From assembly GCA_014728035.1 (NCBI GenBank), contig WJMJ01000034.1:30541-94540 (forward strand): DNA of 64,000 bases. The letters are read 5' to 3'. The notes beneath the pieces are model-generated. The model did no database searches. It was not told the origin of the DNA and was given only the letters and a program-made list of their open reading frames with translations. This DNA comes from Promethearchaeota archaeon (GTDB taxonomy: Archaea; Asgardarchaeota; Thorarchaeia; Thorarchaeales; Thorarchaeaceae). Position 1 is the first letter of the stretch, and each line of letters starts with the position of its first letter. Shown in pieces: positions 19,032-38,340 of the stretch. Position numbers and translations under genes: made by a program.

Positions 19032-22000
19032 TTAGCTATCAATTCCAAGACTCTTCAGGAGAGCTTCCATATCTGCTTTTGAGAGGTCATGTGCTTGCTC
19101 TAGAATGATTTCAATTTCTTCCTTCGCAATACCTTTCTGCATTAGCTTCTTTCGGAACTCTTCCAGAACTTCTGGTTGTTCACCAAGTGTCTTGGGGCCC
19201 ACTGAAGGTGTGGTTTTTGATTCAGGAGTAACAGGGGTCTCTACTTCAGGTTTAGCTTCAACCTTTTCGGGTTTAGTTGTTTCCGTAACATCAACCTCAG
19301 GCGACTCAGATATCTCAGCTTCAACAACAGGTTTAGTTTCAGCTTCTGCAATTGCTTCAGCACGACGAGCTTCTTCTTGTGTAATAACCTCTTTTAGGAA
19401 GCCAATCCGTTCACTGACTTTCATCCTTGCTAAATCAGACTTAAAGGCTTCAAGGTCTGATTCTCCGAGACCTGTTATCTCAGTCAACCGGTCGAGTAAT
19501 TCATTCAACTCGGGTACATCAATTTGAATTGGTGGAGAATGAACCTTATCTGGATCAGGCTCTATCTTTGTCGCTGCAAATTCTTCCCTAAGAATAGCAA
19601 CAGTCAAATCCTTTCTAGACTGTGCAGGATATGGTTTAGGTACCTTACCCTTGCTTACATTAGAAATCATACTGTTCAAAACTCTAATCATCTTGGGAAC
19701 ACTATAGATTCGTACATAGTATACAATACCGAGTGCGACGAATATGAAGCTTAGTCCACCAAGAACCTGAGCAGCTTGTATTAAGGCTTGAGTAGCAGAT
19801 ATGTCAGAAATAACCTCAATGTCAATCGTTTGAGTGACATAGTTTTCCTTTGCCATCGAAATACGTATTGTGAACGTCCGACCAACATTGACCTGGAAAT
19901 ACAGAGTATAGACGCCGGGTTGAGTTTCACGAGTCCTATCAGGATAGTAGGTCACATTTCCTTCATTAAATGAAATATCAGGTATCACACCAGAAACTGG
20001 GACGTTATGATCAAGATCATAGTAACGAATCTCAATTGTGATAACGCTACCAGGAGTAGTTTGAATTCTTGTCTGAGAAGCAGTAAGATTAGTTCGAATC
20101 AAATCTACCGAGATGAATACAGTCTTGGTGGAAATTGCGTAGATTTCTGTTGGAAATGCAACTTCTACCTGATAAGTACCTAGAATCAAATCGTCAGGAA
20201 TTGCTAGTGCATACCCATTCGGGCTATTCTCAAGGGAGAACTGTCCAATACCAGTCCAAACTGCAATACCATTTAGGTCATCAATAAGTTCGCCAGTTAG
20301 TGTGTTAGTGACGTTAAAGTAGATTGTATTAGTTTCATTGATTGGTGTTGAGAATGTATCAGGTCCATGTATTATTGCTTCAGTAGGCAAGATCGTAACA
20401 GCAAGGGCGATATTTGCTGTTTGATAATTCTCTTTTCCGATACTTACCGAAATATCATAGAATTGTGGTAGTGTCAGGTTGAGATAGAATTCTATGAGAT
20501 AGCTGCCATTCTGTAAATCAGTTGCTACTGGATTGGGACCAACCCATGAAATTGACAGAGTTCCGTTCAAAATTGGTTGATTTGTATAAGTGTCATTGAA
20601 GTAAACAACAAATGATACATATTCGCCAGTATATCCGTCTTGCAATGAGCTTTGAGTTGTTAGTTCAGTGGAATGAGGACGGACTGTCAAAGTCAAGGTT
20701 CGCTTAGATACCGTATAGCCAGATTTTATTGCAGTGATACTAATGTAGAATGTTTTAGCAGATAGAAGAGAAGTGTTAATTGAGGCGGAGTAAGAACCAT
20801 CAAGTTGCTGCTCAAGACTCCCTGATAATTCGCCTACACTGTAAGATATGGAAGCATTATCAATGGAAACATCATAATGGGTATCATTGAAAGTAAATTC
20901 CAAAAATACCAATTCATTATAGAACACCGTAAGACCAGCTTGATCAGTTAGAAGTGTGAGTTTTGATGGAATAAGATCAACTGAAACTACTATTTCAGAA
21001 GAAAGAATGTCGTAATTAGTAGAACTTGCACTGAATGCTAGATTGTACTGTCCATAACCAAACCCAGTTACATTTACTGAGCCGAAATAGAACCCGATTG
21101 TGCCATTATTAGATAGTGTTACAATAGTATCGTTCCACTCAGCTGTCACTGATGCAGACTGAATAGGTTGGTCATTTGTAGAATCATAGAGATAGACATA
21201 GTAGTAACCAGTCGTGTTTGCAATTACAGAAAGCAAACTATTACTTGGTTCGATGTATCCAGTTGCTTTGGATATTACTAATGATAATGTAGTCTGCCGA
21301 GTCTGATAATATTCACGAGTTACTGTTATCTGCGGTGAATAGATTCCCCAATCCACAACGCTTGTATCAAGTATGAGAGAATAGCTTCCATCGTCTAAAT
21401 CAGTGAAATAGTAAGTGGTACCATTCAACAAGAGGCTACCATTCATTCCTTTCACCAGAGTTCCACGATATGTGTCCTCCACATTGAATCGAATTTCTAC
21501 AGACTGACCCCAATCAGCGTAGTAAGTTGTTTGGGCTAAGAGAATCACTACAGAACCTGAACCAGGTTGTACGCTGATAGTAATGTTAACTGTTGCGTAA
21601 TATTGCTTAGTAGCCTCTACTGTGAAGACATACTCTTGAGCTACAAGCCCAGTTGTGTTAAGTGATATTCTGTACTCACCATTATCAATCTCATTGATAG
21701 TCGCTGAAAGGCCTGTAATGTCAGTCCAATCAGTACTTAGAGTTGCACCAAGAATGGGAACTGAATGATCGAAATCTATTAACGTCAGATTTACGAGAAT
21801 TGGATCACCGACTGGAATTGTTCCAGCACCTGGTACTTCAGAAATTAATGAGGTTTGAATAGCTCTGATCGAGGCAGGAATATCAGATTCTGTTCTGCTT
21901 GCGTAAAATGGGGTACCACTCTTACTTAACGTTAATTCAAGGAGAATGTTCCCGAGACCACCGAATTGGTCGGATGGGATAGTTAAGACGTAGATTCCAC

Positions 22001-25000
22001 CAGAGAAATTCTGAATATACCATACTGGTGTTGTGAGGTTGGTTATGACCAAATCCACATTAGCATCATTTATTCCTGAGCTCGTTAAATAATCTATGAA
22101 TTCAAATTCTATTGTGATGTTATCACCGTAAGGTGTTTCTTCAACAGAGGGGAATAGAATTTGTGTAGGACGCTCAATAGTATTCGCTACAGTTGATATT
22201 GTTCTAACAGTATAGTATGGTATTCCAACGCTCTTATTGATGAGTAGTTTGATTGTGTGAGAGCTAACTAACTGAGAGGGATCTAGGATAGTAGAATTGA
22301 AGGTTATCTCATAGTAGCTTGCATAAGCCCAGAGTGTGTAATCAGATTGGTCAATGACTGTATCTAGTGGACCATGGGTTAATGTGATATGGCTCTGATT
22401 AATGTAGATATTCTCGCCCGTGAAAAAGTCTTCAAATCTGAATGTGAAAGATATATCTTCAAGAAATGAAGTGTCACCTGGTGTCTTGGTTAGAATTATC
22501 TGAGTTGTTCTCTCAATTACCCGTGCATTAACATTTTGTGACAATGGGAGATAGTAAGGTTGTCCTACATAACTTACCTGGAACTCAATAGTGTAGATAT
22601 CTGGGCTCCCTAGAGCTGAAGTGTTTACATCAATTCTATACTGCCCATCTTCAATGTAAGTTATCCAATATGTTGTATTCTCAACTAGGGGTTCCACAGA
22701 TTCACTACAATTTAGAATGACTATCGCATCCTCAATACCATTACCAGTTGAATCATCAACATAGGTAATCAATATTGTAGAGTTTCTTCCATATGGAGCT
22801 GAATCTGGACTTTCGTATCCTAATTGTGTGCTTCTTTTCAAAACATTGATTGTGAAATAATGAATTGCATCAGCTGCATTGTTAGAACCTGTGTATAAGA
22901 TGGTTGCATTGAGGGTATAGGTTCCATCTGAAGGAAAGCCGGTGGAATCTAAAACAACCCTGTATTCTCCATCTCCCAAGTATGATACATAATACCAACC
23001 ACTCAAGGATATATTTAGAGATAAATCACCCGTCATTCCAGATGAGCTACCTGCTACCAAGTCAGTATAGACGAAATCAATAGTGACATTATTCCCCCAT
23101 TGAGGAGAATTAAATGCTAAATTGCTAAGTTGTGTGGTTCTGAGTGTAATTGTAACAGTGAATGCAAGACTGGATACTGCCGCGTAATTCGGTAATCCAA
23201 CCCAAGTCAGATTCAAATGGAGTGAATAAGATCCAACTCCACCAACAGTAGAAGTATCAATATACAACGTGAAGGTTCTATCTACATCATTATAACTCAG
23301 AGTGAAAATTATCCCACCTTCATTTAGACCAATAGTTAACTCTGAAGAATTGGAAATCTTGGTTGTTGATAAAGAGTCCACATAGTTGAATGAGAATTCT
23401 GCGGTTTCACCATAAGGAGTACTCTGAACAGGAGTATAGTCAACATAGGTTGGACGTTGTAAAACAATGAGTGTAACAGTAAGACTCTGATTCTCATAGA
23501 GCGGAGATATACCTGCTCTCCACATGAAGTCCAACTTGAATCTGAATGTTCCAGTTGTGATAAACAAAGAACTATCCAAATTGAATTCATATGTTCCCGG
23601 ATTAGTTCCAGATTCTACTACATAGAAATCCGATTGAATAACCGGATGACCTGAAGTAATAGGAGCAATTTGTAGTAACACATTATCAGTATCATTAGAG
23701 ATACGTGTGCTTGTGTCAAATTCTTTGTAAACTACTGTAAAGGTGAAGTTTTCAAGACAGTAGGTAGCAGAAGGAGCTATTTCTAAGAATACAATCGTAT
23801 CAGTCCCTTTAATCCGTACGGATGAATTTAGGTCACCTTCAACATATTTTACAGCGCCATCCCACCAGATGGAAATAATGAGGTTTTTCGTGCCAATAGT
23901 TCCCCATTGATCACTTGGAATGGAGATATTGTAGTGCCCATCTCCATAATTGGAATTACTAACCCAGTATTGTATACTGGAGATACCAGGGGAGCTCACT
24001 GTTATTCGGACGTTACCAGAAATGTTGGTAATTGGTATACTAAGATCAGTATCTTCGTAGTAGACTAGAGCTGTTATGTTTTCACCAAATTGTGTTTGCT
24101 GAATTGGTGAATCAAACTTGAATAGAGTTTGATGCTGTCTAACTAGAACATCGATAGAAAATGTGTGATTCTGATAGTTCGGTCGTTCAATAGTAAAATT
24201 AACTGTGTACCACTTCTGATCCGCACCTTGTGTGTCATCATCTTCTGTGAATATGGTAATCTCATATTTACCTGCAGTAGCAGTTTCAGAAATAGTGTAG
24301 TTATCCTCACCCAGTGTATGATATGTATCCCAATCACATACTATGTATGAAGCTGCACCAGCTATTGGACTTCCACTATCCTCAGTCCATGTAAGGAAGA
24401 ATGATTGATTAGAACCAACAGGAATTGATAGTTGATTTGCAGTATAACTAATAGAGTTGTACACCTCTCGTACCTCAACTAGAAGGAACATCTGAACGGG
24501 ATTAACAAAGTCAGCTGTTGCATTGATCAGGAGTTTGTAAGTTCCAAGAGGTACACCAGTTCCGTCAAGCTTGAAGTCATATGTGCCATCAAGGTTATCC
24601 GTTACAGAATAACTTGTAGACCAATTGCACCATAGAACTCCACTAGAAATCCCAGTTGGGATAACAGCATCTCTTCTGAAATTAACCGTGAATGATTGAT
24701 TGTTACCAATTCTATCTGATATCCCAGGATATTGGTCAGATGTAAGAGTAGCATCGTAATTAGCATTGATTGTCAATACACCTGAAGTATCATCATAGAA
24801 AGTCCGAGACCAGTTCATAACCATAGAGTATTGTCCTTTATCAGGAAGGTCTTCGGTTTCAAATACCAAAGTGTATTCACCATTTCCACTGCCTGAAAAT
24901 GAACCTGTTAGAATAACATCATTTGTTGAATTACGAATCTCATATGACATAGTTCCTTGGGCAATTGCTACTGAGCTATCAATATCATTTGCCTGAATTA

Positions 25001-26921
25001 TGACGTATAGAAGGTCGCCATAAGTTACATTTGTAAGCCAAGTACCTATCGCATCACTTGGTCCAACTACTTCTAAATCAGTATTGTGCGTTATCGAGAA
25101 AGTTCTCAAGAAATACCCTGTAGAATTCCATGTACTGCTGTCTGCACGATTGTCTGTAAGCGCTCTAACTGTCCATTCTCCTGCTGTTGCATTTGCGCCT
25201 GCAAAATTGAGATAGTCAGAGATAGCGTAGCCACTTGCATCAACAGTCGCATTTACACTTCCCCAAAATACATTATCAGGGTCATAAATTGAGATATTTA
25301 CTACAGAATTCTCATATTCAGATCCAACATTGATTCGGAATCTAGTATCGTCACCAGCTCGAATGTTTACAAACTGATTCCAAAGACTACTAATGGGATT
25401 TTCAAGTTCGATGTCTGTAATCATATTGGGTGATGTACTCAATATTCGCCAATATCTATACCGTCCAACTTCATTTGTAATGTCATAAGTTGATACATTG
25501 AGATATCCATCACCATAATTGCCGCCTGAAACCCCTGTAGTTACATTATTTGTTGGATTGAGAAATGTCGCAACGTGAAATACATCACGATTGAGAGGGA
25601 TGCTAATGTTGTAGAAATACCGATTAACATAACCATCGGGAATATCTGCATAGAAATATGTGGTGAAATTGGCCTGAGTTGCATTTTGAATCTGTACGAA
25701 TTCACCATAAGAAGTCTGATCTATTTGATATACGGTCGGAACATCATATCTCCTACTGAAGAGGTTTGTATCAACATCGAAATCAATGATAATAGTTTCA
25801 TTTGGGTCCGGATTTGTTGGTATCGGAGTCCATGAAAAGACAAGGTCTACTGGATCTGTTGACCATGGAGTAGAAGGCATTTGCGAGATAGAACCAAGTC
25901 CGCGAACAGCTCCATCGAGTACATCCAGACCGTTCATCTGAAGATTGATTTCACTGGGTGAAACCTTGGTCTTTAGATATAGATGAATATTGTCCATTCT
26001 TGCGTTAGGTCCAATCTCAGGGTCATACCCAACAGTATCTGTACACCAAAGACCAACTTGTAGAGTAATAGTATTATCAGTGAATATTGATGTGGGTACG
26101 CTAACTAGACCAGAGCTGAACCATTGTGCCTCTGCAGCTATATCACCAAATGCAAGAGCCCAAATCGAATTTGCAGGATTAGTGTCCTCAATCATTGCAT
26201 AGATTGAGAAACTTCCACTTAGGTCATAAGAAACGTCATCATAAGTGTCGGCGAAGTAATCTAAGGATAGACCAGCCCAAACAACATCTCCACGGTCAAT
26301 CGTGACGGATTGCTCAGCGTATGCACGGTCTCCTGAATCATAGAAATAGGGTGCTGAACCTGATGTGGAATTCAATTCGAATTTTACACAATCATCTCCA
26401 GCTCCATGTCCATTGTCCATCCAATTGGTATAGGGAATGCTATACCCACCCCCAGCACCATTAGTGCCTAAAGTCCAACTTGATGCATCTCCAGTAAATC
26501 CTGGATTCAAGTACCAAGTTCGATTTTCAGTAAGGTCAGATATTTCTGTTTGAACATTGTATGACTCCCAGCCAGTTCCTGAAGGGATTTGGATGGTATC
26601 AGAAGTTGTTGTATTGTCAGGATAATAGAACATGGTTCGATCATCCCATATATCAGACCGATTACCATATTCAGATCCTAGTAGTGGAGAAGATGTATCA
26701 TTAACCTCGACCCATCCATCTTCTGTTAGCATGAATTTGTGCAGCTGCTCATCAGGCGCAACTTCGATTGTTTCACCATTTCCGATGTCTACTAATCTAG
26801 ATCCATCTGGTAAAGCTACTCCTGAATCAGAGTACAAGTCAAACGGAGTGACTGAAGACATTTGGAATATTAGCAATATAGCAAACACCGCAACTATAAT
26901 TTTCCCATGTACTTGCTTCAT
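19032..26921 (-). CDS. Giant (2629 aa) single-pass cell-surface protein with tandem Ig-like repeats and cytoplasmic tail
   Basis: Signal peptide; many ~100-125 aa beta repeats (T-x-L...Y-x-D...G-x-Y); abundant sequons; TM VLGGLSFIFVALGIVYYV; ~225 aa cytoplasmic tail. Confidence 0.9.
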   Translation of the reverse strand: MKQVHGKIIVAVFAILLIFQMSSVTPFDLYSDSGVALPDGSRLVDIGNGETIEVAPDEQLHKFMLTEDGWVEVNDTSSPLLGSEYGNRSDIWDDRTMFYYPDNTTTSDTIQIPSGTGWESYNVQTEISDLTENRTWYLNPGFTGDASSWTLGTNGAGGGYSIPYTNWMDNGHGAGDDCVKFELNSTSGSAPYFYDSGDRAYAEQSVTIDRGDVVWAGLSLDYFADTYDDVSYDLSGSFSIYAMIEDTNPANSIWALAFGDIAAEAQWFSSGLVSVPTSIFTDNTITLQVGLWCTDTVGYDPEIGPNARMDNIHLYLKTKVSPSEINLQMNGLDVLDGAVRGLGSISQMPSTPWSTDPVDLVFSWTPIPTNPDPNETIIIDFDVDTNLFSRRYDVPTVYQIDQTSYGEFVQIQNATQANFTTYFYADIPDGYVNRYFYNISIPLNRDVFHVATFLNPTNNVTTGVSGGNYGDGYLNVSTYDITNEVGRYRYWRILSTSPNMITDIELENPISSLWNQFVNIRAGDDTRFRINVGSEYENSVVNISIYDPDNVFWGSVNATVDASGYAISDYLNFAGANATAGEWTVRALTDNRADSSTWNSTGYFLRTFSITHNTDLEVVGPSDAIGTWLTNVTYGDLLYVIIQANDIDSSVAIAQGTMSYEIRNSTNDVILTGSFSGSGNGEYTLVFETEDLPDKGQYSMVMNWSRTFYDDTSGVLTINANYDATLTSDQYPGISDRIGNNQSFTVNFRRDAVIPTGISSGVLWCNWSTSYSVTDNLDGTYDFKLDGTGVPLGTYKLLINATADFVNPVQMFLLVEVREVYNSISYTANQLSIPVGSNQSFFLTWTEDSGSPIAGAASYIVCDWDTYHTLGEDNYTISETATAGKYEITIFTEDDDTQGADQKWYTVNFTIERPNYQNHTFSIDVLVRQHQTLFKFDSPIQQTQFGENITALVYYEDTDLSIPITNISGNVRITVSSPGISSIQYWVSNSNYGDGHYNISIPSDQWGTIGTKNLIISIWWDGAVKYVEGDLNSSVRIKGTDTIVFLEIAPSATYCLENFTFTVVYKEFDTSTRISNDTDNVLLQIAPITSGHPVIQSDFYVVESGTNPGTYEFNLDSSLFITTGTFRFKLDFMWRAGISPLYENQSLTVTLIVLQRPTYVDYTPVQSTPYGETAEFSFNYVDSLSTTKISNSSELTIGLNEGGIIFTLSYNDVDRTFTLYIDTSTVGGVGSYSLHLNLTWVGLPNYAAVSSLAFTVTITLRTTQLSNLAFNSPQWGNNVTIDFVYTDLVAGSSSGMTGDLSLNISLSGWYYVSYLGDGEYRVVLDSTGFPSDGTYTLNATILYTGSNNAADAIHYFTINVLKRSTQLGYESPDSAPYGRNSTILITYVDDSTGNGIEDAIVILNCSESVEPLVENTTYWITYIEDGQYRIDVNTSALGSPDIYTIEFQVSYVGQPYYLPLSQNVNARVIERTTQIILTKTPGDTSFLEDISFTFRFEDFFTGENIYINQSHITLTHGPLDTVIDQSDYTLWAYASYYEITFNSTILDPSQLVSSHTIKLLINKSVGIPYYTVRTISTVANTIERPTQILFPSVEETPYGDNITIEFEFIDYLTSSGINDANVDLVITNLTTPVWYIQNFSGGIYVLTIPSDQFGGLGNILLELTLSKSGTPFYASRTESDIPASIRAIQTSLISEVPGAGTIPVGDPILVNLTLIDFDHSVPILGATLSTDWTDITGLSATINEIDNGEYRISLNTTGLVAQEYVFTVEATKQYYATVNITISVQPGSGSVVILLAQTTYYADWGQSVEIRFNVEDTYRGTLVKGMNGSLLLNGTTYYFTDLDDGSYSLILDTSVVDWGIYSPQITVTREYYQTRQTTLSLVISKATGYIEPSNSLLSVIANTTGYYYVYLYDSTNDQPIQSASVTAEWNDTIVTLSNNGTIGFYFGSVNVTGFGYGQYNLAFSASSTNYDILSSEIVVSVDLIPSKLTLLTDQAGLTVFYNELVFLEFTFNDTHYDVSIDNASISYSVGELSGSLEQQLDGSYSASINTSLLSAKTFYISITAIKSGYTVSKRTLTLTVRPHSTELTTQSSLQDGYTGEYVSFVVYFNDTYTNQPILNGTLSISWVGPNPVATDLQNGSYLIEFYLNLTLPQFYDISVSIGKENYQTANIALAVTILPTEAIIHGPDTFSTPINETNTIYFNVTNTLTGELIDDLNGIAVWTGIGQFSLENSPNGYALAIPDDLILGTYQVEVAFPTEIYAISTKTVFISVDLIRTNLTASQTRIQTTPGSVITIEIRYYDLDHNVPVSGVIPDISFNEGNVTYYPDRTRETQPGVYTLYFQVNVGRTFTIRISMAKENYVTQTIDIEVISDISATQALIQAAQVLGGLSFIFVALGIVYYVRIYSVPKMIRVLNSMISNVSKGKVPKPYPAQSRKDLTVAILREEFAATKIEPDPDKVHSPPIQIDVPELNELLDRLTEITGLGESDLEAFKSDLARMKVSERIGFLKEVITQEEARRAEAIAEAETKPVVEAEISESPEVDVTETTKPEKVEAKPEVETPVTPESKTTPSVGPKTLGEQPEVLEEFRKKLMQKGIAKEEIEIILEQAHDLSKADMEALLKSLGIDS

Positions 26922-29900
26922 TAGTCCATCCCTCCAATTTGGTCAATTAGAGCTTCGACCTCAGCCTTTGATAGCTCTTTGGCTTGTTCAATCATAATTT
27001 CAACCTCTGATTCACTAATTCCCATTTTTCGTAGTTTTTCTCGAAGATCATCTAGTTCAGCATCAGTAAGTTTCTGTTCAACATCTTCATCAGCAGATTC
27101 AGCAGCTGTTTCCTCAGCTAACTCCTTTGCACGACGAGAACGTTCTTGTCGAATAACCTCAGAGATGAAGCCAGCCCGTTCACTTGGTCGCATTGCTTCC
27201 AAATTTATTCTCAACGTTTGGATATCATCCTCAGTTAGACCAACAACTGTAGCTAGTTCATGAAGAAGCTCCTCAACATCAAGAATCTCTACTTGGATTG
27301 TTGAACGCGATATATCATCAGATGTTTTTATGATACCAACCGGCACCAGATCTTGATTCATCATAGACAGAAGCATTTCCCTTCTATCTGAGGTGTCGTA
27401 GGGTTCTGGTATACCACCCTTTGAGATTGTGTTGATCATTTTCTGAATCTTTCTAACTTGTTTTGGAACAGATAGAACCCGGATATACACAGCAGCTAGA
27501 ATCGCAAATCCAATAACTGCGATGGCAATATTTCTGAATCCAGTTACAAGAGCCTGTTGTTCTGGAGGAATTTCAGAAAATATCACAATATTGACAGTTT
27601 GAGATTCGTAATCATTCAAACTCATTGTGACTGTGAGTTCATAAGTTGCTACACCAGGTGGAATGAAGGCAAATACATACGTACCATTACCATAATCAAT
27701 CTCTCGGTCTAGTATTCGTGTAAGCCCTGGATTTGTTGTTGCATTATTTGCATTAGGAATTGCAGTAGCATGATCGAGGTCGTAATAGGTAACTCGAACA
27801 AATAGGATGTTTCCAGCAAATACAGATGGAGGTAGCGGCTCATAGGTCAACTCTGTTGCTATTTCTCTGATTACAAGATTCAGAATTATCTCTGTTTGAC
27901 TATAATTCAATTTGCTGATAGAAATCCTCACGCGATATGGCTCATCTTTTATTTCTAGTCTGTCAATACCTGTTGCACTAGGACTGAAAACATAAGTTCC
28001 ATTTCCAAGGTCTTCTAGGATAGCATTACCAAACTCCCAGATTGCTGATGCAGTTGCCCCAGAGATCAACTCATCATGAAGACTGTCAAGATAATCAAAT
28101 GAAACTGAGTAATCATCACCAACAGGATAGGTTATCTCTTCTGGTCCATCGATAGTTGTACTGATTGGCTTCACGATTAATTTGACATTTGTAAAGGCAT
28201 AGGCATGATTATCTTTCCTCATGGTAATCGATATTCTTCTTGCGCTACTACCTGCGATTACAATCGATGAGTTTAAGGTTAGTGAATAATTTCCACCACC
28301 TTCATTTACCAATAATCCCGAAAATCCTTCAAATACAAAATTCGTAGTAGCATTATCTATCCCAATGTTCGAATGAGTATTATTGTAATAAAGTGTGAAT
28401 GTTGCATTTTCACCATGAAATACAGTAAGCAATGCTGGCCCAATAATTTCAATTTTCGTTGGTATTGGTGTGACATCCAAAGTCACTTCAATAGAAGCTG
28501 GTTGGTAACCTGACTGACTGCTAGAGACTGTCAATATCCATTCACTAATAGCAATTGAACTGGTTGGAACCATTGCAGAATACCAACCATTTCCTAATTC
28601 AGTCATATTGCCAACAATCGTTCCAACGCTGTATGTGAGTGTTGAATTAAGGACTGGAAGGTTAAGGTCAGTATTATTAAGGTATACAGTCACATTGACC
28701 TCATCACCATAGACTGCAGGGAGGACGGAGATGTCATTAAGAACAGATAATTCCGTCGATGCTTCACTAACTTCAATAGTTAATTGAGTTGTGACAGTTT
28801 TGTAATTTGTAGATGATGCGGAAACCTGGACTTGGTGAGATCCAACAGTTACACCTGAAATAGTAAATTGCCCAACATATTTTGATTCGATTGCATTCCA
28901 AAAGATTTGTCCAGCCCCTCCAGTCCAGGTATATGTTACAATGCCAGAAGAAATTGGAGATGAATCGGACTGAATCACATACTCAACTTCTACAGTTACT
29001 GTTTGACCATTGACAGTAACATATGAATCTAGGTCTGCATTAATTGATGTACTGACTTTTGCAATTTTTATCTGGAAATCTCTTTGTCTGCTCTCATGAT
29101 TCAGTAAGGAGGATGAGAAAGTAATCGAATACTCTCCCGCATTGAATGAGGAAGAGAGAAGTGTTCTATTATAGATACCAGGTGCAACTTCGATTAAATC
29201 ATAGTACTGGCCACTTATGGTCATGTTCACACTAGCATTGATAATCGCTGAACCGTCACGAGCATCGGTCAGATTGACCGAGAACTCCATTGATTCGCCC
29301 CATATCGGTTCCGTAGGAGTAGCATCTATATCCATTAAAACAGGTACTGGTGCTAAAATAATATCAGCTAGTATTGTTCTGTTAACATGCAAGTATTTCT
29401 CAGCAGTAAGTGAGAAGCTGTAGATTTCTGCATCGAGCCCAGTCGTTTCAATAGTTATATTGTAAATTCCATCACCTAACTCAATAATGGTTATTGAGGT
29501 GCCATACAAAGAGTTCCAGTTTGATTGAATATCAGCAGCCTCAATCCCATCACCAGAGATTTGATTGATAAAAGTTAGATTTCCAATAATAATATCACCA
29601 AGATAGTTGGTAGACTCGTCAGATACTGCAAATGATAAAGTGGTTGACACCGGATTTACAATGATTGTAAACCGTAATAATGTCTTATTTTGATAATACG
29701 GAGTACCTGTCCAAGAGAAGTTTGCATAGAAGATAAATCGACCCAGAGTAAGTAATTTCGTGGTATTGATCTTCACACCATATGTACCATCGAAATTGTT
29801 GATAATCCAATATTGAATTGGAGTTATATTGCTACAAGAAATACTAACAGACGCATTTTCTATACCTATGCCATCAATATAATCACTGTAAGAAACAGTG

Positions 29901-32900
29901 GCAGTCGCATTCAAAGTGAAATATGCAGGAGGTGTCGAAAGCACCGCAACTTGAGTAGGTCTTGAAGTAATGGTTACTTCCGTACTGACTGTGGCGTTGG
30001 CATAGAAAGGTTCGATGTCGCTCCAATAAAACCTCACAGATATCTCATGACCAGACTCAAGTGTTGAAGTTAGAATTGTTGATAGAATTGAGATTGTATA
30101 GGTACCAGATGATCCGGTGAATGAGTACTGACTAGGTAAGATTTCCACACTGCCAATATGAGTCAGAATCAAACTGGACTTATTGATATCTATTGGAGAG
30201 TTCAATAGGGAATCAGTTATGGTAATCTGGAAACTTACATTCTCTCCAAATGGCGTATTTAGAGGTGACTTTGACACTATAAGAGATACGATTCTTCTTG
30301 AGACCTCAATGTTCACATCACGACTTCGGGATTGATAGAATGGACTTCCGGTATAGTCCGCGGTTACTGAAATTGTATAGGTACCGAAATTACCAAGAGC
30401 TTCAGTGTCAATACTAATCACGTAATACCCATCACCCTGGTCAACATACCAATAATTATCGTTTAGAACCAGCGTAGCTTCGGAACAGGTTGCTGAAATT
30501 GTAGTTCCAATAATGCCAGTTCCAGTGTTATCATCGGTATAATAAATGGTGATATTCGCAAGACTCAGGTATGGTGTGAGGTCAGGCAGCTCGCTTGTCA
30601 ATTGCGCTCGCCGGTTTGTGATAGTTATGTAAAACAAGTCAGAAGCATCAGTAGCATATCGAGCCCCACCATAGATTGCATCCACAGATACGACGTAAGT
30701 ACCTATGTTCCCAAATCCAGTAGTGTTGAGATGTAATGTGTATGTCCCATCACCATTATCAACGAAATAGTAGTATCCAGATAATGAGCTATTCAATGTT
30801 AGAATAGCATTATTCATTCCTAAAGATGTTCCATCATCTGTATCGGTATAAGTGAATAGAAGAGTCAGATTGTTCTGATATTGTATAGGTGAAAAGGTTC
30901 CATGAGTCAGTTCTGTATATCTTTCTCGAACATTTATCTGAACAGCAATAGAACTCTTATTCTGATAGAATGGAGAGCCCACCCACGTTATATCAATGTG
31001 GAAAGTATAAGTTCCAGGAGTCCAAGAAGAAGTGTCCAATTCTATCTTGAATACTCCCGTAATATCGCCTTCATAGAATATCTGGTAAGTTATTGCTTCT
31101 TGAATTGAGATTATAAGCTTGGTACTATTTCTAATAGAATCATCAGACAGGACATCTTTGTAGACCAAGGTCAGATTCACCAATTCATCATAGGGAGTAA
31201 CTGGTAAAGGATTCCATTCTGCAGTTGTCTGTCTATAGGTAGAGTAGACAGTAATGACAATTGATTGATTCTCATACAGAGGTAACTCACCATTTGTCCA
31301 ATTGAACATGATTCGGAGTTGACAACCAACTAATCCACTCAGTAGCGAGGTATTAAACTCAAAACGATATTCACCAGAATTGTTGAATGGATCTATTTCT
31401 GTGATTGTGAAATCAGACTGGGTTAGAGTTTCACCTGCAGTGAGAACAGTGATATAGATGTGAACATTTCCAGCGTAAGCTCCGGTTGAATTGACAATTC
31501 CAGTTGCGTTTGCAGTGTCATAATATATTATTGAGAATGAAAGGTCTTCTAGATATGGAGTCATGATAGGACTATCACCGATGAAGATATCTGTAGGAGT
31601 ACTGGTGATAGTTACAGAGGTCTCAATAACCAAATCTTCATACTTTTCAGTGATTCCAGTCCAGAATATTTCAATTGTAAGATTTCGTTCTCCAATTGCA
31701 CCCCATTGATCTGCAGGAACGAGAATGATATATTCGCCTGGATTTGACCCGTTAACAACTGAAAATGTGATTGGACTTCCATCACTAGTCACATTTATCA
31801 AGACTGCAAAATCATTCAATGTTCCATTTGTAATTCCAGCATCCACATCTGAATCATAATACAGCACGGTTGCTTCAACATTTGCGGTATATGGCGTTGG
31901 ATCGATTGGATTGACAAGTTCAAAGGAAGTAAGATGCGTCCGTAATTCAACTGTAATACTGAAGGTATGATTTTGTGAACCGTATCGTTCTATATCGAAT
32001 ATAACAGTAAAGCTGCCAAGTGGGTCATCATTAAACGAAATTAGCTCGATAGTATATTCTCCTGGGGAGGTTTCAGTTACAGTGTAGTTCGTATCTCCCA
32101 AACTATGAAATTCAGTCCAATTGCAGGATATCTCACTCTCAGCAAATTGAATTGGTTCATTTGCATCTGTATCGGTATAAGTCACCGTAAGAGTTCCAGT
32201 GTAACCTACAGGAATAGAAACGAAACTAGTTGACCTAATTACTGAAGTATGAACATCCCTGACTTGCACGGAAAGAAATATTGTTCGCGATTCACAGTAA
32301 TCATTTGATGCAGTTATGTTCAAATCATATAATCCAAGAGATACTCCACTTGTGTTGAAACTAATTTTGTAATACCCTGGTTGTCCAATGACAGGATCAA
32401 CGTTATAGCTGCTGTATGTCCAGTTTGTGACAATGGAAGCACCAGTAATTGGCTGTCCAAGCTGGTCTTCATAGTAAACCTCCATTTCAGCAACATATCC
32501 ACTTGGAATATTGATACCAGGTGCATCGTTCGAGAAGAACTCAGTCGTATAGATTACATTTAAGATGAATACCTCATTTACTGAATCGTAGTTATCCTTA
32601 GACCAATCTAGCTGAATTGGATATTGTCCATTTCCAGAGAGAAGAGTTGTGTCAAGTGAAACACTGTATTCTCCAGTTCCCATATTACTAACAATTCCCG
32701 TACCTGCAGCCCAATCATAAGTCATGAATCCATCAGCGACTAACGTATCTGCATCTGTATCATTTATCTGCAACTGCAATAACACAACATCACCATAAGT
32801 GACGTCCTTGCTCCAAGATGTTTCTGAACCAATTGGATATTTAACAAGCATCTCTGTACTATGGTCGATTTCAAAAGACCGTCTGAAGAATCCTATATTA

Positions 32901-35584
32901 TGAATTTCATTAGAGCTACTGATACCATCATTGACAACTGCTTGAACCTCCCAATTTCCAACTGACGCATTATTCGCTTCGAGATAGACATAATCAGTTA
33001 TAGCATAACCAGATGATACTGTAGCTGATAGAGAGTACCACAAACTATCTGAGGAGTCATACACATCAAATGTTACTAAATCACCCTCGTAAGTACTAGG
33101 AACAGATGCTCTGAAACGTGTTGGTTCGTTTGCTCGAAATGTTCTCGTAGTAGTCCACTGGGACTGAGTAGAATCCCAGACTTCCAAATTTGTTATCATA
33201 TTTGGCGAATTACCTTTCAGTAACCAGAAACCATTCTGATATGTTGTAGTTATATCAAAAACTGAAACATTTACTACTCCATCACCTGGTTGTCCTTGAT
33301 TCCATCCACTGCTGAGATTGGTAGCTCTATCAAATGGCTCTGCGACAAAGGTAATGTCTCTGTTCAGAGGTGTTGATATATTGAAGGAATATTCAGGTTC
33401 ATACCCATCTGGAACTGCAGCATAGTAGTTTGTAGTCCACTTTACGTTAGAAGCATTAGTAACAGAGTAACGTTCTCCTGAATTGAATAATGTGTCATAA
33501 ACAGTTGTACCACCGTGTTTCTTGGCAAAAGCTTTGACATCTACGTCAAACTCGATACTGATATCTCTATCAGGATCAGGTGTTGCAGGAATCGGCGTCC
33601 AAGTAAAATTAGCGAAAGCAGTATCCATCCATGTTGGACTAGCAGTGTAAGTAGCAAACCCAGTTCCGAAAACTGAAGGTCCACCAGTATCACTCACCGT
33701 ATTTCCATTCATTTCCATATTGATCTGAGAGGGTTTGACTTTCGCTTTTACATACACATGAATGTTATCAAATCGTACTTCAGGTCGGATATCATTATTC
33801 CTATACCATTCCTTCTGAGTCACTCTTAATCCAAGTGTTAAGTCCAAGTCATTGGGATTTACTGCAGTAGTACTTGCTTCAACAAGTCCGGTTGAATACC
33901 AAGTATTTGTTGCTAATGTAGGATCTTCGAGGCTTCTCCTCCAAAGGTAGTTTCCACCACTATCAGGGTCACCATCTGCTACGTACATCTCAAAGAATCC
34001 GCCCATTATACCCCAACCGCGTAGGTCAGCCCAATGATCAACTGAAACACCAATCCAAGTTACATCACCCCGATTGATGTTCAGATTCTGGGAGGCAAAC
34101 GTCTTATCGTCCAAATTGTACCAATATCCATAAGTAGAATCTGGGTCGTCATACCAATATCCATCCATAATCAGACTTAAAGCAGGATTTCCAGTTCCAT
34201 GTCCGTCAGATTCCCAACGAGCATTAAGTTTCATATGGCCACCACTCTCAAGAGTGTAGACATATCCCGTTGAATTGATTGCTACTCCATAATTGAAGAG
34301 AAATTGACCATTTCCGGAACCACGGCTACCCCAGTTATATTGATGTGTATCAATACCAGAATCGTAAACAAGAATTCTGTGATCACCAGAATCACATATG
34401 AATACATCACCAGAACCATCCACAGCTAATCCACGTGGGTCTCGTGTAGTGTCTGTATTAATCGCATAATTTCGACGATGCTGTGTGACTTGGTCAATAT
34501 AGGCTCCTGCAGACGAGAATTGAGATATTCCATAGTTATTGTTATAGTACATAGTAGCATCTGAAACGTAGACATCACCAGTGGCTTGGTTAATCGCAAT
34601 TCCACTTGGACAGATGAAATTTCCACCACCTGTGCCATATCCTCCAAATTGTGCGGAATAAGTACCTACTGAATCAAAGATCTGTACTCTGAAGTTACCT
34701 TGATCAACAACATACACTCCATTAGAAGATATTGCAATTCCAACAGGACCAAAAAATTCACCATTTCCGTTTCCATCCTGTCCAAATTCTGATACGTAGG
34801 TACCATCGCTGGTGAAAATCTGAATACGATTATTCCCATTATCTGCAACATATACATAACCTGTTGAGTTGATTGCAATACCCATTGGGTTGTCAAACTC
34901 TCCAGAAGCAGAGCCAAATGTTCCCCATTGTCCCTCATAATTACCCGCAGAGTCAAAATACTGAATTCTATTATTACCTGTATCTGCCACATAGATATAA
35001 TCAGAACCATTGATAGCAATTCCATATGGGTCAATGAATTGTCCATTTCCAGTACCATATGATCCCCATTGGGTCGCGTAAGTGCCAGTATTTGAAAAGA
35101 CTTGAATTCTGTTATTGCCTGAGAAACCTGTAGTTGCATGACTAGTACTGAAAGTCCATTGAGATGTGTCATCAAATCCGCTGTTTACGACCCAGGTTCT
35201 ATTCTCTGTTAATTCGGTTACAGTTGTAGTTACTTGATATGATTCCCATCCATCACCGATTGGTACCGTCAAATCCGTGCCTGTTGTTGTACCACCAGAT
35301 GAATCATATAGCATTGAAGATTCACTATACGTATCAACACGAGTGCCATATTCTGAACCATTCAACGCATAACCGATTCCATTCACTGAAGTAGGAGACG
35401 CTGAAAGATCATAACGATATAACACCTCATCGGGTCCAATTTCGATAATACTTCCATCATCTAATTCATAGAATTCGTTTTGTGAAGCCTCTTCTCCTGT
35501 GGGTGAAAACAATCCCATCATGGAAGACATAGTTAGCACTAATATGAGTGCCAGCAACTTGATAGATGTTCTTCTACTAGGCAC
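26921..35584 (-). CDS. Giant (2887 aa) single-pass cell-surface protein, paralog of 19032..26921, with NHL beta-propeller
   Basis: GTG start, signal peptide, 6 NHL blades (F-x-x-P-x-GIAI...YVAD-x-GN-x-RIQ-x-F), same repeats and tail as the paralog; TAATG stop/start overlap at 26921. Confidence 0.9.
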   Translation of the reverse strand: MPSRRTSIKLLALILVLTMSSMMGLFSPTGEEASQNEFYELDDGSIIEIGPDEVLYRYDLSASPTSVNGIGYALNGSEYGTRVDTYSESSMLYDSSGGTTTGTDLTVPIGDGWESYQVTTTVTELTENRTWVVNSGFDDTSQWTFSTSHATTGFSGNNRIQVFSNTGTYATQWGSYGTGNGQFIDPYGIAINGSDYIYVADTGNNRIQYFDSAGNYEGQWGTFGSASGEFDNPMGIAINSTGYVYVADNGNNRIQIFTSDGTYVSEFGQDGNGNGEFFGPVGIAISSNGVYVVDQGNFRVQIFDSVGTYSAQFGGYGTGGGNFICPSGIAINQATGDVYVSDATMYYNNNYGISQFSSAGAYIDQVTQHRRNYAINTDTTRDPRGLAVDGSGDVFICDSGDHRILVYDSGIDTHQYNWGSRGSGNGQFLFNYGVAINSTGYVYTLESGGHMKLNARWESDGHGTGNPALSLIMDGYWYDDPDSTYGYWYNLDDKTFASQNLNINRGDVTWIGVSVDHWADLRGWGIMGGFFEMYVADGDPDSGGNYLWRRSLEDPTLATNTWYSTGLVEASTTAVNPNDLDLTLGLRVTQKEWYRNNDIRPEVRFDNIHVYVKAKVKPSQINMEMNGNTVSDTGGPSVFGTGFATYTASPTWMDTAFANFTWTPIPATPDPDRDISIEFDVDVKAFAKKHGGTTVYDTLFNSGERYSVTNASNVKWTTNYYAAVPDGYEPEYSFNISTPLNRDITFVAEPFDRATNLSSGWNQGQPGDGVVNVSVFDITTTYQNGFWLLKGNSPNMITNLEVWDSTQSQWTTTRTFRANEPTRFRASVPSTYEGDLVTFDVYDSSDSLWYSLSATVSSGYAITDYVYLEANNASVGNWEVQAVVNDGISSSNEIHNIGFFRRSFEIDHSTEMLVKYPIGSETSWSKDVTYGDVVLLQLQINDTDADTLVADGFMTYDWAAGTGIVSNMGTGEYSVSLDTTLLSGNGQYPIQLDWSKDNYDSVNEVFILNVIYTTEFFSNDAPGINIPSGYVAEMEVYYEDQLGQPITGASIVTNWTYSSYNVDPVIGQPGYYKISFNTSGVSLGLYDLNITASNDYCESRTIFLSVQVRDVHTSVIRSTSFVSIPVGYTGTLTVTYTDTDANEPIQFAESEISCNWTEFHSLGDTNYTVTETSPGEYTIELISFNDDPLGSFTVIFDIERYGSQNHTFSITVELRTHLTSFELVNPIDPTPYTANVEATVLYYDSDVDAGITNGTLNDFAVLINVTSDGSPITFSVVNGSNPGEYIILVPADQWGAIGERNLTIEIFWTGITEKYEDLVIETSVTITSTPTDIFIGDSPIMTPYLEDLSFSIIYYDTANATGIVNSTGAYAGNVHIYITVLTAGETLTQSDFTITEIDPFNNSGEYRFEFNTSLLSGLVGCQLRIMFNWTNGELPLYENQSIVITVYSTYRQTTAEWNPLPVTPYDELVNLTLVYKDVLSDDSIRNSTKLIISIQEAITYQIFYEGDITGVFKIELDTSSWTPGTYTFHIDITWVGSPFYQNKSSIAVQINVRERYTELTHGTFSPIQYQNNLTLLFTYTDTDDGTSLGMNNAILTLNSSLSGYYYFVDNGDGTYTLHLNTTGFGNIGTYVVSVDAIYGGARYATDASDLFYITITNRRAQLTSELPDLTPYLSLANITIYYTDDNTGTGIIGTTISATCSEATLVLNDNYWYVDQGDGYYVISIDTEALGNFGTYTISVTADYTGSPFYQSRSRDVNIEVSRRIVSLIVSKSPLNTPFGENVSFQITITDSLLNSPIDINKSSLILTHIGSVEILPSQYSFTGSSGTYTISILSTILTSTLESGHEISVRFYWSDIEPFYANATVSTEVTITSRPTQVAVLSTPPAYFTLNATATVSYSDYIDGIGIENASVSISCSNITPIQYWIINNFDGTYGVKINTTKLLTLGRFIFYANFSWTGTPYYQNKTLLRFTIIVNPVSTTLSFAVSDESTNYLGDIIIGNLTFINQISGDGIEAADIQSNWNSLYGTSITIIELGDGIYNITIETTGLDAEIYSFSLTAEKYLHVNRTILADIILAPVPVLMDIDATPTEPIWGESMEFSVNLTDARDGSAIINASVNMTISGQYYDLIEVAPGIYNRTLLSSSFNAGEYSITFSSSLLNHESRQRDFQIKIAKVSTSINADLDSYVTVNGQTVTVEVEYVIQSDSSPISSGIVTYTWTGGAGQIFWNAIESKYVGQFTISGVTVGSHQVQVSASSTNYKTVTTQLTIEVSEASTELSVLNDISVLPAVYGDEVNVTVYLNNTDLNLPVLNSTLTYSVGTIVGNMTELGNGWYSAMVPTSSIAISEWILTVSSSQSGYQPASIEVTLDVTPIPTKIEIIGPALLTVFHGENATFTLYYNNTHSNIGIDNATTNFVFEGFSGLLVNEGGGNYSLTLNSSIVIAGSSARRISITMRKDNHAYAFTNVKLIVKPISTTIDGPEEITYPVGDDYSVSFDYLDSLHDELISGATASAIWEFGNAILEDLGNGTYVFSPSATGIDRLEIKDEPYRVRISISKLNYSQTEIILNLVIREIATELTYEPLPPSVFAGNILFVRVTYYDLDHATAIPNANNATTNPGLTRILDREIDYGNGTYVFAFIPPGVATYELTVTMSLNDYESQTVNIVIFSEIPPEQQALVTGFRNIAIAVIGFAILAAVYIRVLSVPKQVRKIQKMINTISKGGIPEPYDTSDRREMLLSMMNQDLVPVGIIKTSDDISRSTIQVEILDVEELLHELATVVGLTEDDIQTLRINLEAMRPSERAGFISEVIRQERSRRAKELAEETAAESADEDVEQKLTDAELDDLREKLRKMGISESEVEIMIEQAKELSKAEVEALIDQIGGMD
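34240..35116 (-). repeat. Six NHL repeats within the 2887-aa gene
   Basis: Repeated NNRIQ-x-F...G-x-F-x-x-P-x-GIAIN...YV-x-D units of ~47 aa. Confidence 0.85.
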
Positions 35585-35716: not shown

Positions 35717-35745
35717 ATTATGCCGATATATCGAATCGGCATAAT
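35717..35745 (-). terminator. Hairpin directly after the metalloprotease gene
   Basis: ATTATGCCGAT-atatcga-ATCGGCATAAT, perfect 11-bp stem 5 nt past the stop. Confidence 0.55.
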
Positions 35746-37928: not shown

Positions 37929-38340
37929 GTAGTAAAAATTGATTTTGAACTTTTTAAAAGTCACCAATCAAGCAGTATTTCACCTCACATTTATAATTCA
38001 CAATCACCAAATATATTAGCAGTGAATATATCATATTCGTTAGCGCATCAGTAAGACTAGTTAAACTCCTTCGACTAGGAACGAAAGTTCCCACATACTT
38101 GATTTCAAAGATGATCTAAGTCTACTGATACCACCTTTTGTATAACCGCGAGTAGCTTTACCACCACTACATTAATGATTGTGCATCTTGCTCTAGTACG
38201 ATTTGAATTGATAATGCAGAATATCTTGGAATATGAGGTGGATAAAATTCGAATGTTATATTCAGAAAAGGAACAACAAAGCTTTATCATTCAATATAAC
38301 GAAACGATAATTGATGTGACTCCAGAGGTGCTGGTTTAGT

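Follow-up and report, generated by a model that had tools for sequence, protein, structure and literature searches.

The 64,000-nucleotide (nt) stretch of DNA analysed here, called the window (contig WJMJ01000034.1 of assembly GCA_014728035.1, positions 30,541 to 94,540 of the forward strand), comes from a Promethearchaeota archaeon of the family Thorarchaeaceae (class Thorarchaeia). Between positions 19,032 and 35,584, it carries two adjacent genes, referred to as A (upstream) and B (downstream), which encode giant paralogous surface proteins of 2887 and 2629 amino acids (aa). The genes and their junction, read from the open reading frames (ORFs), the translations and the sequence itself, are located as follows:

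26921..35584, minus strand: gene A, GTG start, predicted 2887-aa type-I surface glycoprotein, upstream member of the pair (ORF and translation)
19032..26921, minus strand: gene B, ATG start, predicted 2629-aa type-I surface glycoprotein, downstream member of the pair (ORF and translation)
26919..26935, minus strand: A/B coupling junction, with GGAGG at 26935-26931, the stop TAA at 26923-26921 and the start ATG at 26921-26919 (sequence)

The junction reads ...GGAGGgatggacTAATGaag, with one base common to the stop codon of A and the start codon of B (TAATG), and with GGAGG located 9 nt upstream of the B start, within the last codons of A. A first-pass annotation of this DNA, made from the letters alone, had described 2887-aa and 2629-aa paralogs overlapping by 1 nt, and both the reading frames and the junction are as claimed. 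It had also proposed that the two proteins are colinear from the N-terminus. This holds over most of their length, as A and B share 32% identity over 2520 aligned columns (BLASTP, E = 0), and as the motifs GSEYG.R.D and LTENRTW are found in both N-termini. Nevertheless, the colinearity is broken by an NHL propeller of ~290 aa that is present in A only (Pfam NHL, E 2.2e-27; a gap in the A/B alignment), which explains the difference in length between the two proteins. An ortholog of A from Candidatus Thorarchaeota (TXT54638.1) is annotated as a 'conserved exported protein of unknown function'.

Both N-termini contain a signal-like hydrophobic segment, and hydropathy scanning reveals a single transmembrane (TM) helix in each protein, in C-terminal position:

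27473..27553, minus strand: TM helix of A, residues 2678-2704 (hydropathy scan; K/R-rich sequence C-terminal to the helix)
19704..19787, minus strand: TM helix of B, residues 2379-2406 (hydropathy scan)

The ectodomains of A and B contain 64 and 67 N-x-S/T sequons, versus 38 and 32 in shuffled sequences, while the tails contain 0 and 1, respectively. The ectodomains are poor in lysine; the tails are rich in Glu, Lys, and Arg, with net charges of -17 (A) and -14 (B). The signal-like N-terminus, the TM helix, and the distribution of sequons and lysines fit a type-I topology, in which the ectodomain would be glycosylated outside the cell and the tail would be cytoplasmic.

The tails start with SVPK, at residue 2705 in A and 2407 in B, and count 183 and 223 aa, ending with ...GGMD and ...GIDS. 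The three conserved blocks quoted in the first-pass annotation are all found in both of them. They are organized in three modules:

27338..27472, minus strand: tail of A, juxtamembrane motif SVPK..R ... G.IP.P ... R (P3, R7, P22, and R30 invariant in 25 tails)
27083..27295, minus strand: tail of A, core helical domain LL..L....GL..E....L...L..M..SER.GF..EVI.QE..RRA (L69, L73, M94, S97, E98, F102, V106, Q109, and E110 invariant)
26924..27076, minus strand: tail of A, end of the acidic linker and C-terminal three-helix unit (helices 137-149, 154-164, and 169-180 in the model)
19035..19703, minus strand: cytoplasmic tail of B, 223 aa, the same three modules with a longer Pro/Glu-rich linker (tail alignment)

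Together with G151, the residues listed for A constitute the 14 invariant positions in the alignment of 25 tails. The AlphaFold2 model of the tail is all-helical, with a mean predicted local distance difference test score (pLDDT) of 86.9. It starts with two helices, one of them juxtamembrane (4-17) and the other at 30-45, followed by the core helices 66-77, 81-92, and 96-129 (pLDDT ~89-95), a short acidic linker, and finally the terminal three-helix unit (137-180). Two types of tails can be distinguished: short-linker tails of ~183-187 aa, and long-linker tails of ~235-250 aa with an extra helix. In protein P0041 and in the proteins of genomes G320 and G368, the terminal unit is present in four tandem copies, which fits a binding module working by avidity.

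Searches against Pfam, either with a single tail or with all 25 aligned tails, yielded just sub-threshold and inconsistent helical matches. The tail profile found nothing meaningful among PDB sequences (best E 0.007, a PBP2 linker), and Foldseek found no PDB structure at E <= 0.001 for the tail model. It had been suggested that the terminal helical domain could be UBA-, CUE-, or SAM-like. This identity is unsupported: no UBA or CUE family occurs in the first 25 of the 77 weak Pfam matches of the 25 tails, and for residues 133-183, the VIA-wide rows obtained from the whole-tail model are generic three-helix bundles (Z <= 6.1), with no UBA in the top 50. As modelled, the tail is a folded helical module of no described family, absent from Pfam, as is the juxtamembrane motif.

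On the outer side, the ectodomains consist of a head and a long stalk:

34250..35134, minus strand: NHL six-blade beta-propeller, head of A only, residues ~151-445 (Pfam NHL, 2.2e-27; DUF5128 6-bladed propeller, 7.5e-13)
32885..34243, minus strand: head of A homologous to that of B (jelly roll and beta-sandwich), residues ~448-900 (36-45% identical to B residues 158-600)
25062..26840, minus strand: head of B, residues 28-620, CBM/MAM-like jelly roll and macroglobulin/immunoglobulin (Ig)-like sandwich (AlphaFold2 model, Foldseek, VIA)
27587..32854, minus strand: stalk of A, 17 Ig-like repeats of ~100 aa (iterated repeat hidden Markov model, HMM)
19818..25079, minus strand: stalk of B, 17 Ig-like repeats (iterated repeat HMM)

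The NHL family (PF01436) is recognized in A with 94.1 bits, for a Pfam gathering cut-off of 20, over five stretches, so that the propeller can be assigned to this family. The AlphaFold2 model of the B head, built from nine orthologs, is all-beta and confident at residues 58-365 (pLDDT 75-90); the fold of the corresponding part of A is taken from this model. Foldseek matches it to carbohydrate-binding modules (CBMs), MAM-Ig-FN structures, and Eph ectodomains, with E values of 1e-5 to 1e-6. Residues ~100-291 form a jelly roll of the kind found in CBMs, MAM domains, and Eph ligand-binding domains (Foldseek and VIA-align), for example with a VIA Z score of 9.2 over 167 aligned residues with the alginate-binding CBM 8zqf, and of ~9 with the MAM domains 8yt7 and 2c9a. 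Residues 470-590 form a macroglobulin (MG)/Ig-like sandwich, with VIA Z scores of 11.5 for both a C5 MG domain and the surface layer (S-layer) protein 7ptp; the B head also matches SlaB (8qox_B) with a Z score of 9.6.

Such heads evoke ligand-sensing receptors, and the pair might be regarded as one, in which the TM helix passes a conformational signal on to the tail, as the head folds resemble the MAM-Ig-FN part of RPTP mu/kappa and the Eph ligand-binding domain. Nevertheless, this resemblance is at the level of the generic jelly roll, which is shared with CBMs, no enzymatic or known signalling domain was found in the tail by Pfam searching, and 17 domains in series would be a poor transmitter of conformational change. 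A receptor function of this type is, therefore, highly improbable.

Each stalk contains exactly 17 units, spaced by 94-121 aa according to the iterated repeat HMM. Pfam provides just weak single-repeat matches (Big_3_5, PKD, Ig_NUP210), while the profile built from the 34 units matches the bacterial Ig-like domains of FdeC (4e9l_A) with an E value of 1.4e-7. On this profile match, the stalk repeats are assigned to bacterial-Ig-like units.

The conservation of the pair was surveyed in ten near-complete or single-contig genomes and at one further locus. In eight of the surveyed genomes, an intact gene of the A type has a B-type gene immediately after it. The exceptions are G334, with a disrupted upstream frame, and G320 and G368, two single-contig assemblies in which just short open frames are seen. 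In all nine genomes examined, belonging to two families, the A-type gene is upstream and the B-type gene downstream. A-type proteins count ~2900 aa in the source family and 2608 aa in the sister family, and B-type proteins ~2600 aa. Three genomes have TAATG at the junction, one has ATGA, and four have GTGA, while a 4-nt gap separates the genes in the sister family; the genes, thus, overlap by 1 or 4 nt in 8/9 genomes, and the overlap or gap does not exceed 4 nt in any of the nine. In addition, each of the eight source-family genomes has GGAGG within the final codons of A, 8-13 nt before the downstream start (including loci L037-L042 and L044). The conserved Gly-Gly end of A is encoded as GGAGG, and thereby doubles as the ribosome-binding site of B. 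Homologs of A and B do not mostly occur singly, an outcome that the first-pass annotation had named as telling against a pair; they are paired in 9/9 genomes.

A tree of 83 tails groups those of the family into two clades, one of upstream tails (support 99) and one of downstream tails (support 98), which dates the duplication before the family. The number of stalk repeats is also maintained: A and B of the window both have 17, as do 14 of 16 orthologs, and 16 are counted in the other two, both downstream genes, where one unit was probably missed.

The first-pass annotation had further set the conservation of the tails against that of the ectodomains. Between the paralogs A and B, the tail blocks are 40-44% identical, versus 19-46% per 100 ectodomain columns; on this alignment, the tail is as conserved as the best parts of the ectodomain, not more. 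Between orthologs (mean pairwise identity among nine orthologs), the identity reaches 0.62-0.66 for the tail core (0.62 in A, 0.66 in B) and 0.58-0.60 for the terminal unit (0.60 in B), versus 0.39-0.55 for the ectodomain segments, with the lowest values close to the membrane. It amounts to 0.42-0.47 for the juxtamembrane part and 0.35-0.37 for the linker (0.37 in B). The concern that tails would be no more conserved than ectodomains is, thus, not borne out among orthologs, where the tail cores are somewhat better conserved.

The distribution of the tail extends far beyond the pair. Searching 1.84 billion representatives with the tail of A yielded 103 clusters, all of them matching at the C-terminus, in proteins of up to 5543 aa, many being fragments cut by contig ends. 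The tail is common to giant proteins with unrelated ectodomains and heads. The whole-tail profile gives strong matches in 80/85 genomes of the source family (Thorarchaeota) and in the single genome of the sister family, and weak matches in three other families, one of them being Hermodarchaeota. In the latter, the tails are carried by ORFs of 1900-2700 aa, and are homologous to those of Thorarchaeota by profile-profile comparison (hhalign 97.1%, E 5.8e-11). The profile of the juxtamembrane motif, which covers the TM end and tail residues 1-52, has matches in 271 of 400 Asgard genomes, although its weakest matches need caution, as hydrophobic TM columns are included; it has no match in three families of 31, 12, and 22 genomes. 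In distant Asgard lineages, the motif is found on type-I proteins of 1100-1900 aa, most of which have tails ending soon after it, e.g., YPPLVRKIRALRKKVYKGKKTKP....R. This differing spread of the three tail modules points to differing evolutionary depths.

At locus L048 (G304:C1:242987-246127), a type-I protein of 868 aa, encoded by the 1.4-Mb single-contig genome of a different Asgard family, combines the motif YPKIIRKIRGMIKTIRSGRLPKPTGVRDR with the terminal helical unit, without the central core, which indicates that the tail modules can be combined independently. In the source genome, four genes carry the tail: A, B, a single gene encoding 5063 aa on contig C37, and one truncated at a contig end. 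The sole hint of a free-standing relative is a 177-aa ORF (C37:129226-129756, plus strand), which has no TM helix and shows a weak, non-significant likeness to the juxtamembrane and core parts (E 0.15-0.2). Searching for the Pfam family NPR2 (PF06218) gave no match in the source genome, but control genomes were also without a match.

Other giants are present in the source genome. Two proteins of 2155 aa (C25:362525-368989, minus strand) and 1580 aa (C65:15747-20486, minus strand) have the same type of stalk repeat, in 8 and 7 units. They end with a different tail of similar-looking pattern (...LELDELAKKMAMCGIEEGRVYYLIMEAIKK...), which may constitute a second tail family. The longest open frame of the assembly, of 9987 codons, lies at C28:151-30111 (minus strand).

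In the window, A and B differ from the other anchored proteins in their C-termini: as the first-pass annotation had noticed, the latter stop just after the TM helix, the two concerned ending with ...IIKRK and ...AKKKS. For instance, a 1461-aa surface protein (54594-58979, minus strand), containing NosD/right-handed beta-helix repeats (Pfam 1e-100), Ig-like domains, and a Thr-rich linker, has a TM anchor ending with KKKS, and is an ordinary short-tailed anchored protein, contrasting with A and B. The gene located directly upstream of A is the following:

35751..37967, minus strand: upstream neighbour, 738-aa membrane-anchored protein with the metzincin-type motif HETMHAVGIGH (translation)

Orthologs of this 738-aa protein sit directly upstream of the giant pair in four of five other genomes. 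The pattern HExxHxxGxxH is kept in 5/6 sequences compared (S replaces G in G362), as is SPMGY, ~18 residues downstream of the zinc motif (5/6 sequences). Neither a Pfam match nor a PDB sequence match was found for this protein. Judging from its motifs, it is a candidate surface protease, which could process or shed the giant proteins. A perfect hairpin, ATGCCGAT-tcgatat-ATCGGCAT, is located at 35720-35742 (minus strand), 9 nt past the stop of the 738-aa gene, and is followed by a T/A-rich stretch (aatttattatttat, ttttaatact). This arrangement looks like a terminator followed by a promoter, in which case the giant pair may be its own transcription unit.

Literature searches, made in one library, did not find any paper on the A/B pair, the tail family, or the juxtamembrane motif. 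The closest described architecture is that of PySLP from Pyrobaculum arsenaticum, a 292 kDa 'colossal' S-layer protein with 19 Ig-like domains and a C-terminal TM helix, whose tail is short and basic, ends in Lys, and shows lineage-specific conservation (10.64898/2026.08.21.746120). PySLP and its Thermoproteota homologs, like A and B, are archaeal proteins of ~2,600-2,900 residues with a signal peptide, an Ig-like pillar array, and a single C-terminal TM helix; the likeness is one of architecture. Unlike PySLP, which is encoded by one gene, A and B are encoded by two coupled paralogous genes, and have a lectin-like or NHL head. Their tails also differ, being folded, acidic, and 183-223 aa long. 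Adjacent envelope genes are known in Sulfolobales, where SlaA and SlaB, the latter with Ig-like domains and a TM helix, are co-expressed and build one structure (10.64898/2026.08.21.746120). Nevertheless, SlaA and SlaB are not paralogous, and only SlaB is anchored, whereas A and B are paralogous, both anchored, and both tailed. The pair is, thus, of a known kind, that of giant Ig-repeat TM-anchored archaeal surface proteins; what is unusual is the gene pairing and the folded modular cytoplasmic tail.

These likenesses bear on the claim of the first-pass annotation that A and B are not plain S-layer proteins. This claim is not established, since the near-universality of the tail, the fixed 17-domain stalk, and the dense sequons suit a core component of the envelope no less than they suit an adhesin. 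The S-layer or surface canopy of Thorarchaeota could be built of A and B, the tail being an enlarged inner anchor, self-associating or lying on the membrane, that orders the lattice without recruiting any partner. The tail found in 80/85 family genomes, the strictly fixed stalk length, and the dense sequons all favor this explanation, as do the matches of the MG/Ig-like domain to the in-situ S-layer protein 7ptp and to SlaB, and the precedent of PySLP (10.64898/2026.08.21.746120). However, the Ig/MG matches concern generic beta-sandwiches, and the short, basic, Lys-ending tail of PySLP has little in common with the folded, acidic, modular tail of 183-250 aa, with its multipliable end unit, found here. 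In addition, the same tail is carried by several unrelated giant ectodomains per genome, which is unusual for a single lattice protein. The S-layer explanation is considered rather unlikely.

Bacterial giant adhesins are anchored to the outer membrane or the cell wall, lack a cytoplasmic domain, and many of them are secreted by type 1 or type 5 systems. Those built of Ig repeats (FdeC, intimin/invasin, SiiE, LapA, and Bap types) share with A and B the head-stalk-anchor logic, a tandem bacterial-Ig-like stalk, and a distal sugar- or ligand-binding module. They differ from A and B, which have a Sec-type signal, a C-terminal TM helix, and a cytoplasmic tail. A type 1-secreted RTX adhesin of the LapA/SiiE type was considered and rejected, given the N-terminal signal-like segment, the C-terminal TM helix with its tail, and the lack of any RTX family in Pfam searches.

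The interpretation favored here, with about an even chance of being right, is that A and B constitute an anciently duplicated, co-translated pair of giant surface glycoproteins of the core envelope of Thorarchaeia, acting together, with the tail as a docking platform. Each protein would be exported by means of its N-terminal signal peptide and held by its one C-terminal TM helix, and would display a lectin-like jelly-roll head, complemented in A by the NHL propeller, on a stalk of 17 Ig-like domains. Given the overlap of their genes, A and B would be made together from one mRNA. We infer that they associate physically and that the heads meet a ligand; standing side by side, they would most likely form one tall glycosylated pillar or adhesion structure. 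Of the three modules of the cytoplasmic tail, the basic juxtamembrane motif comes first and occurs on type-I surface proteins in the majority of Asgard lineages; a helical core common to Thorarchaeota and Hermodarchaeota follows, and the terminal three-helix unit, which is multipliable, comes last. The tail would most likely serve as a docking platform for one or several cytoplasmic partners, tying the surface structure to the interior. Docking is favored over mere anchoring, because the tail is found on unrelated ectodomains, its invariant residues lie on a conserved helix face, and its end unit is multipliable. The folded cytoplasmic tails, thus, suggest a link from the cell surface to the interior. 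The first-pass annotation had inferred a 1:1, possibly heterodimeric, adhesion or receptor pair with tails that bind cytoplasmic partners; this is supported in part, as regards an ancient, stably coupled gene pair with a shared folded tail, while the heterodimer and the binding of partners are putative.

Several observations weigh against this interpretation. The tail-bearing gene encoding 5063 aa (C37) stands alone, and the other tail-bearing tandems, encoding proteins of ~4100 and ~3170 aa, do not overlap. These long-tail tandems (loci L060-L065, in G362:C1, G353:C3, G372:C2, G317:C3, G377:C57, and G358:C21) have spacers of 144-195 nt. In four of the six (L061, L062, L064, and L065), a conserved TTTCGAAAAA(A/T)A motif, probably a promoter element, is found soon after the upstream stop. 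Such spacers, with this motif, indicate that these tandems are not coupled, and that coupling is specific to A/B. The first-pass annotation had asked whether the tail always occurs in tandem pairs across Asgard genomes; the A/B homologs do so, while other tail-bearing giants are single or non-overlapping, and the tail does not need a paired partner. Furthermore, few parts of the proteins are less conserved than the TM helices (0.37-0.44 identity among orthologs), which does not favor a specific TM-TM interface. Together with the single tail-bearing genes, this poor conservation argues against tail-tail pairing being obligatory. The tail is also just slightly better conserved than the ectodomain, its core being the best-conserved part by a modest margin. 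With regard to partners, the whole-genome search of the source genome revealed no free-standing copy of the core or terminal module, as only four giant ORFs match. No conserved cytoplasmic gene neighbour was seen at the A/B locus, nor any obvious conserved cytoplasmic partner near the single 5063-aa paralog. Finally, the best match of the VIA-wide fold search with the tail (Z 6.8) is inside the noise for helical models.

Several of these observations would be expected if A and B were independent paralogous adhesins, co-expressed for economy and not touching each other, with the tail as a shared handle for sorting, insertion, or quality control. The occurrence of the tail on single genes and non-overlapping tandems is in line with this, as are the juxtamembrane motif on many shorter Asgard type-I proteins whose tails end soon after it and the poor conservation of the TM helices. 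Nevertheless, the gene order, the overlap, and the equality of the repeat numbers all go back to before the radiation of the family and have been maintained, and co-expression alone requires none of them. Independent adhesins usually vary in repeat number and have a patchy distribution, which also counts against this explanation. It is, consequently, considered improbable, and A and B are still best described as acting together.

A further comparison, by analogy only, can be made with metazoan integrin alpha/beta, in which, as proposed for A and B, two type-I glycoproteins act as a pair, with a propeller in one head and tails that would dock adaptors. The differences are, however, numerous: the propeller of A is of the NHL type, not FG-GAP, there is neither a VWA/beta-I domain nor an NPxY motif, the tails are folded and not short peptides, and no homology was detected. 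Membership of the integrins was rejected, as no FG-GAP or VWA family was found for A or B in Pfam at E <= 0.1. Going beyond a docking platform for a cytoplasmic partner, the tail might couple a two-subunit adhesion or coat complex to eukaryote-like machinery (a longin-type adaptor with a small GTPase, or actin), in the manner of integrin or cadherin tails, and the juxtamembrane motif might be an Asgard-wide address label. This extension is speculative and, on balance, unlikely.

Giant adhesins and S-layer proteins of prokaryotes usually stop at the membrane. It is unusual that the largest surface proteins of Thorarchaeota carry a cytoplasmic domain which is folded, modular, and found throughout the lineage. 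From the fixed 17 + 17 paired stalk, a pillar with a height of tens of nanometres can be predicted. Among known organisms, Asgard archaea are the nearest to eukaryotes, and at issue is how their cell surface is built, and whether it communicates with their eukaryote-like cytoskeleton, GTPases, and trafficking proteins. The tail offers a testable handle on the coupling of surface to interior in these archaeal relatives of eukaryotes.

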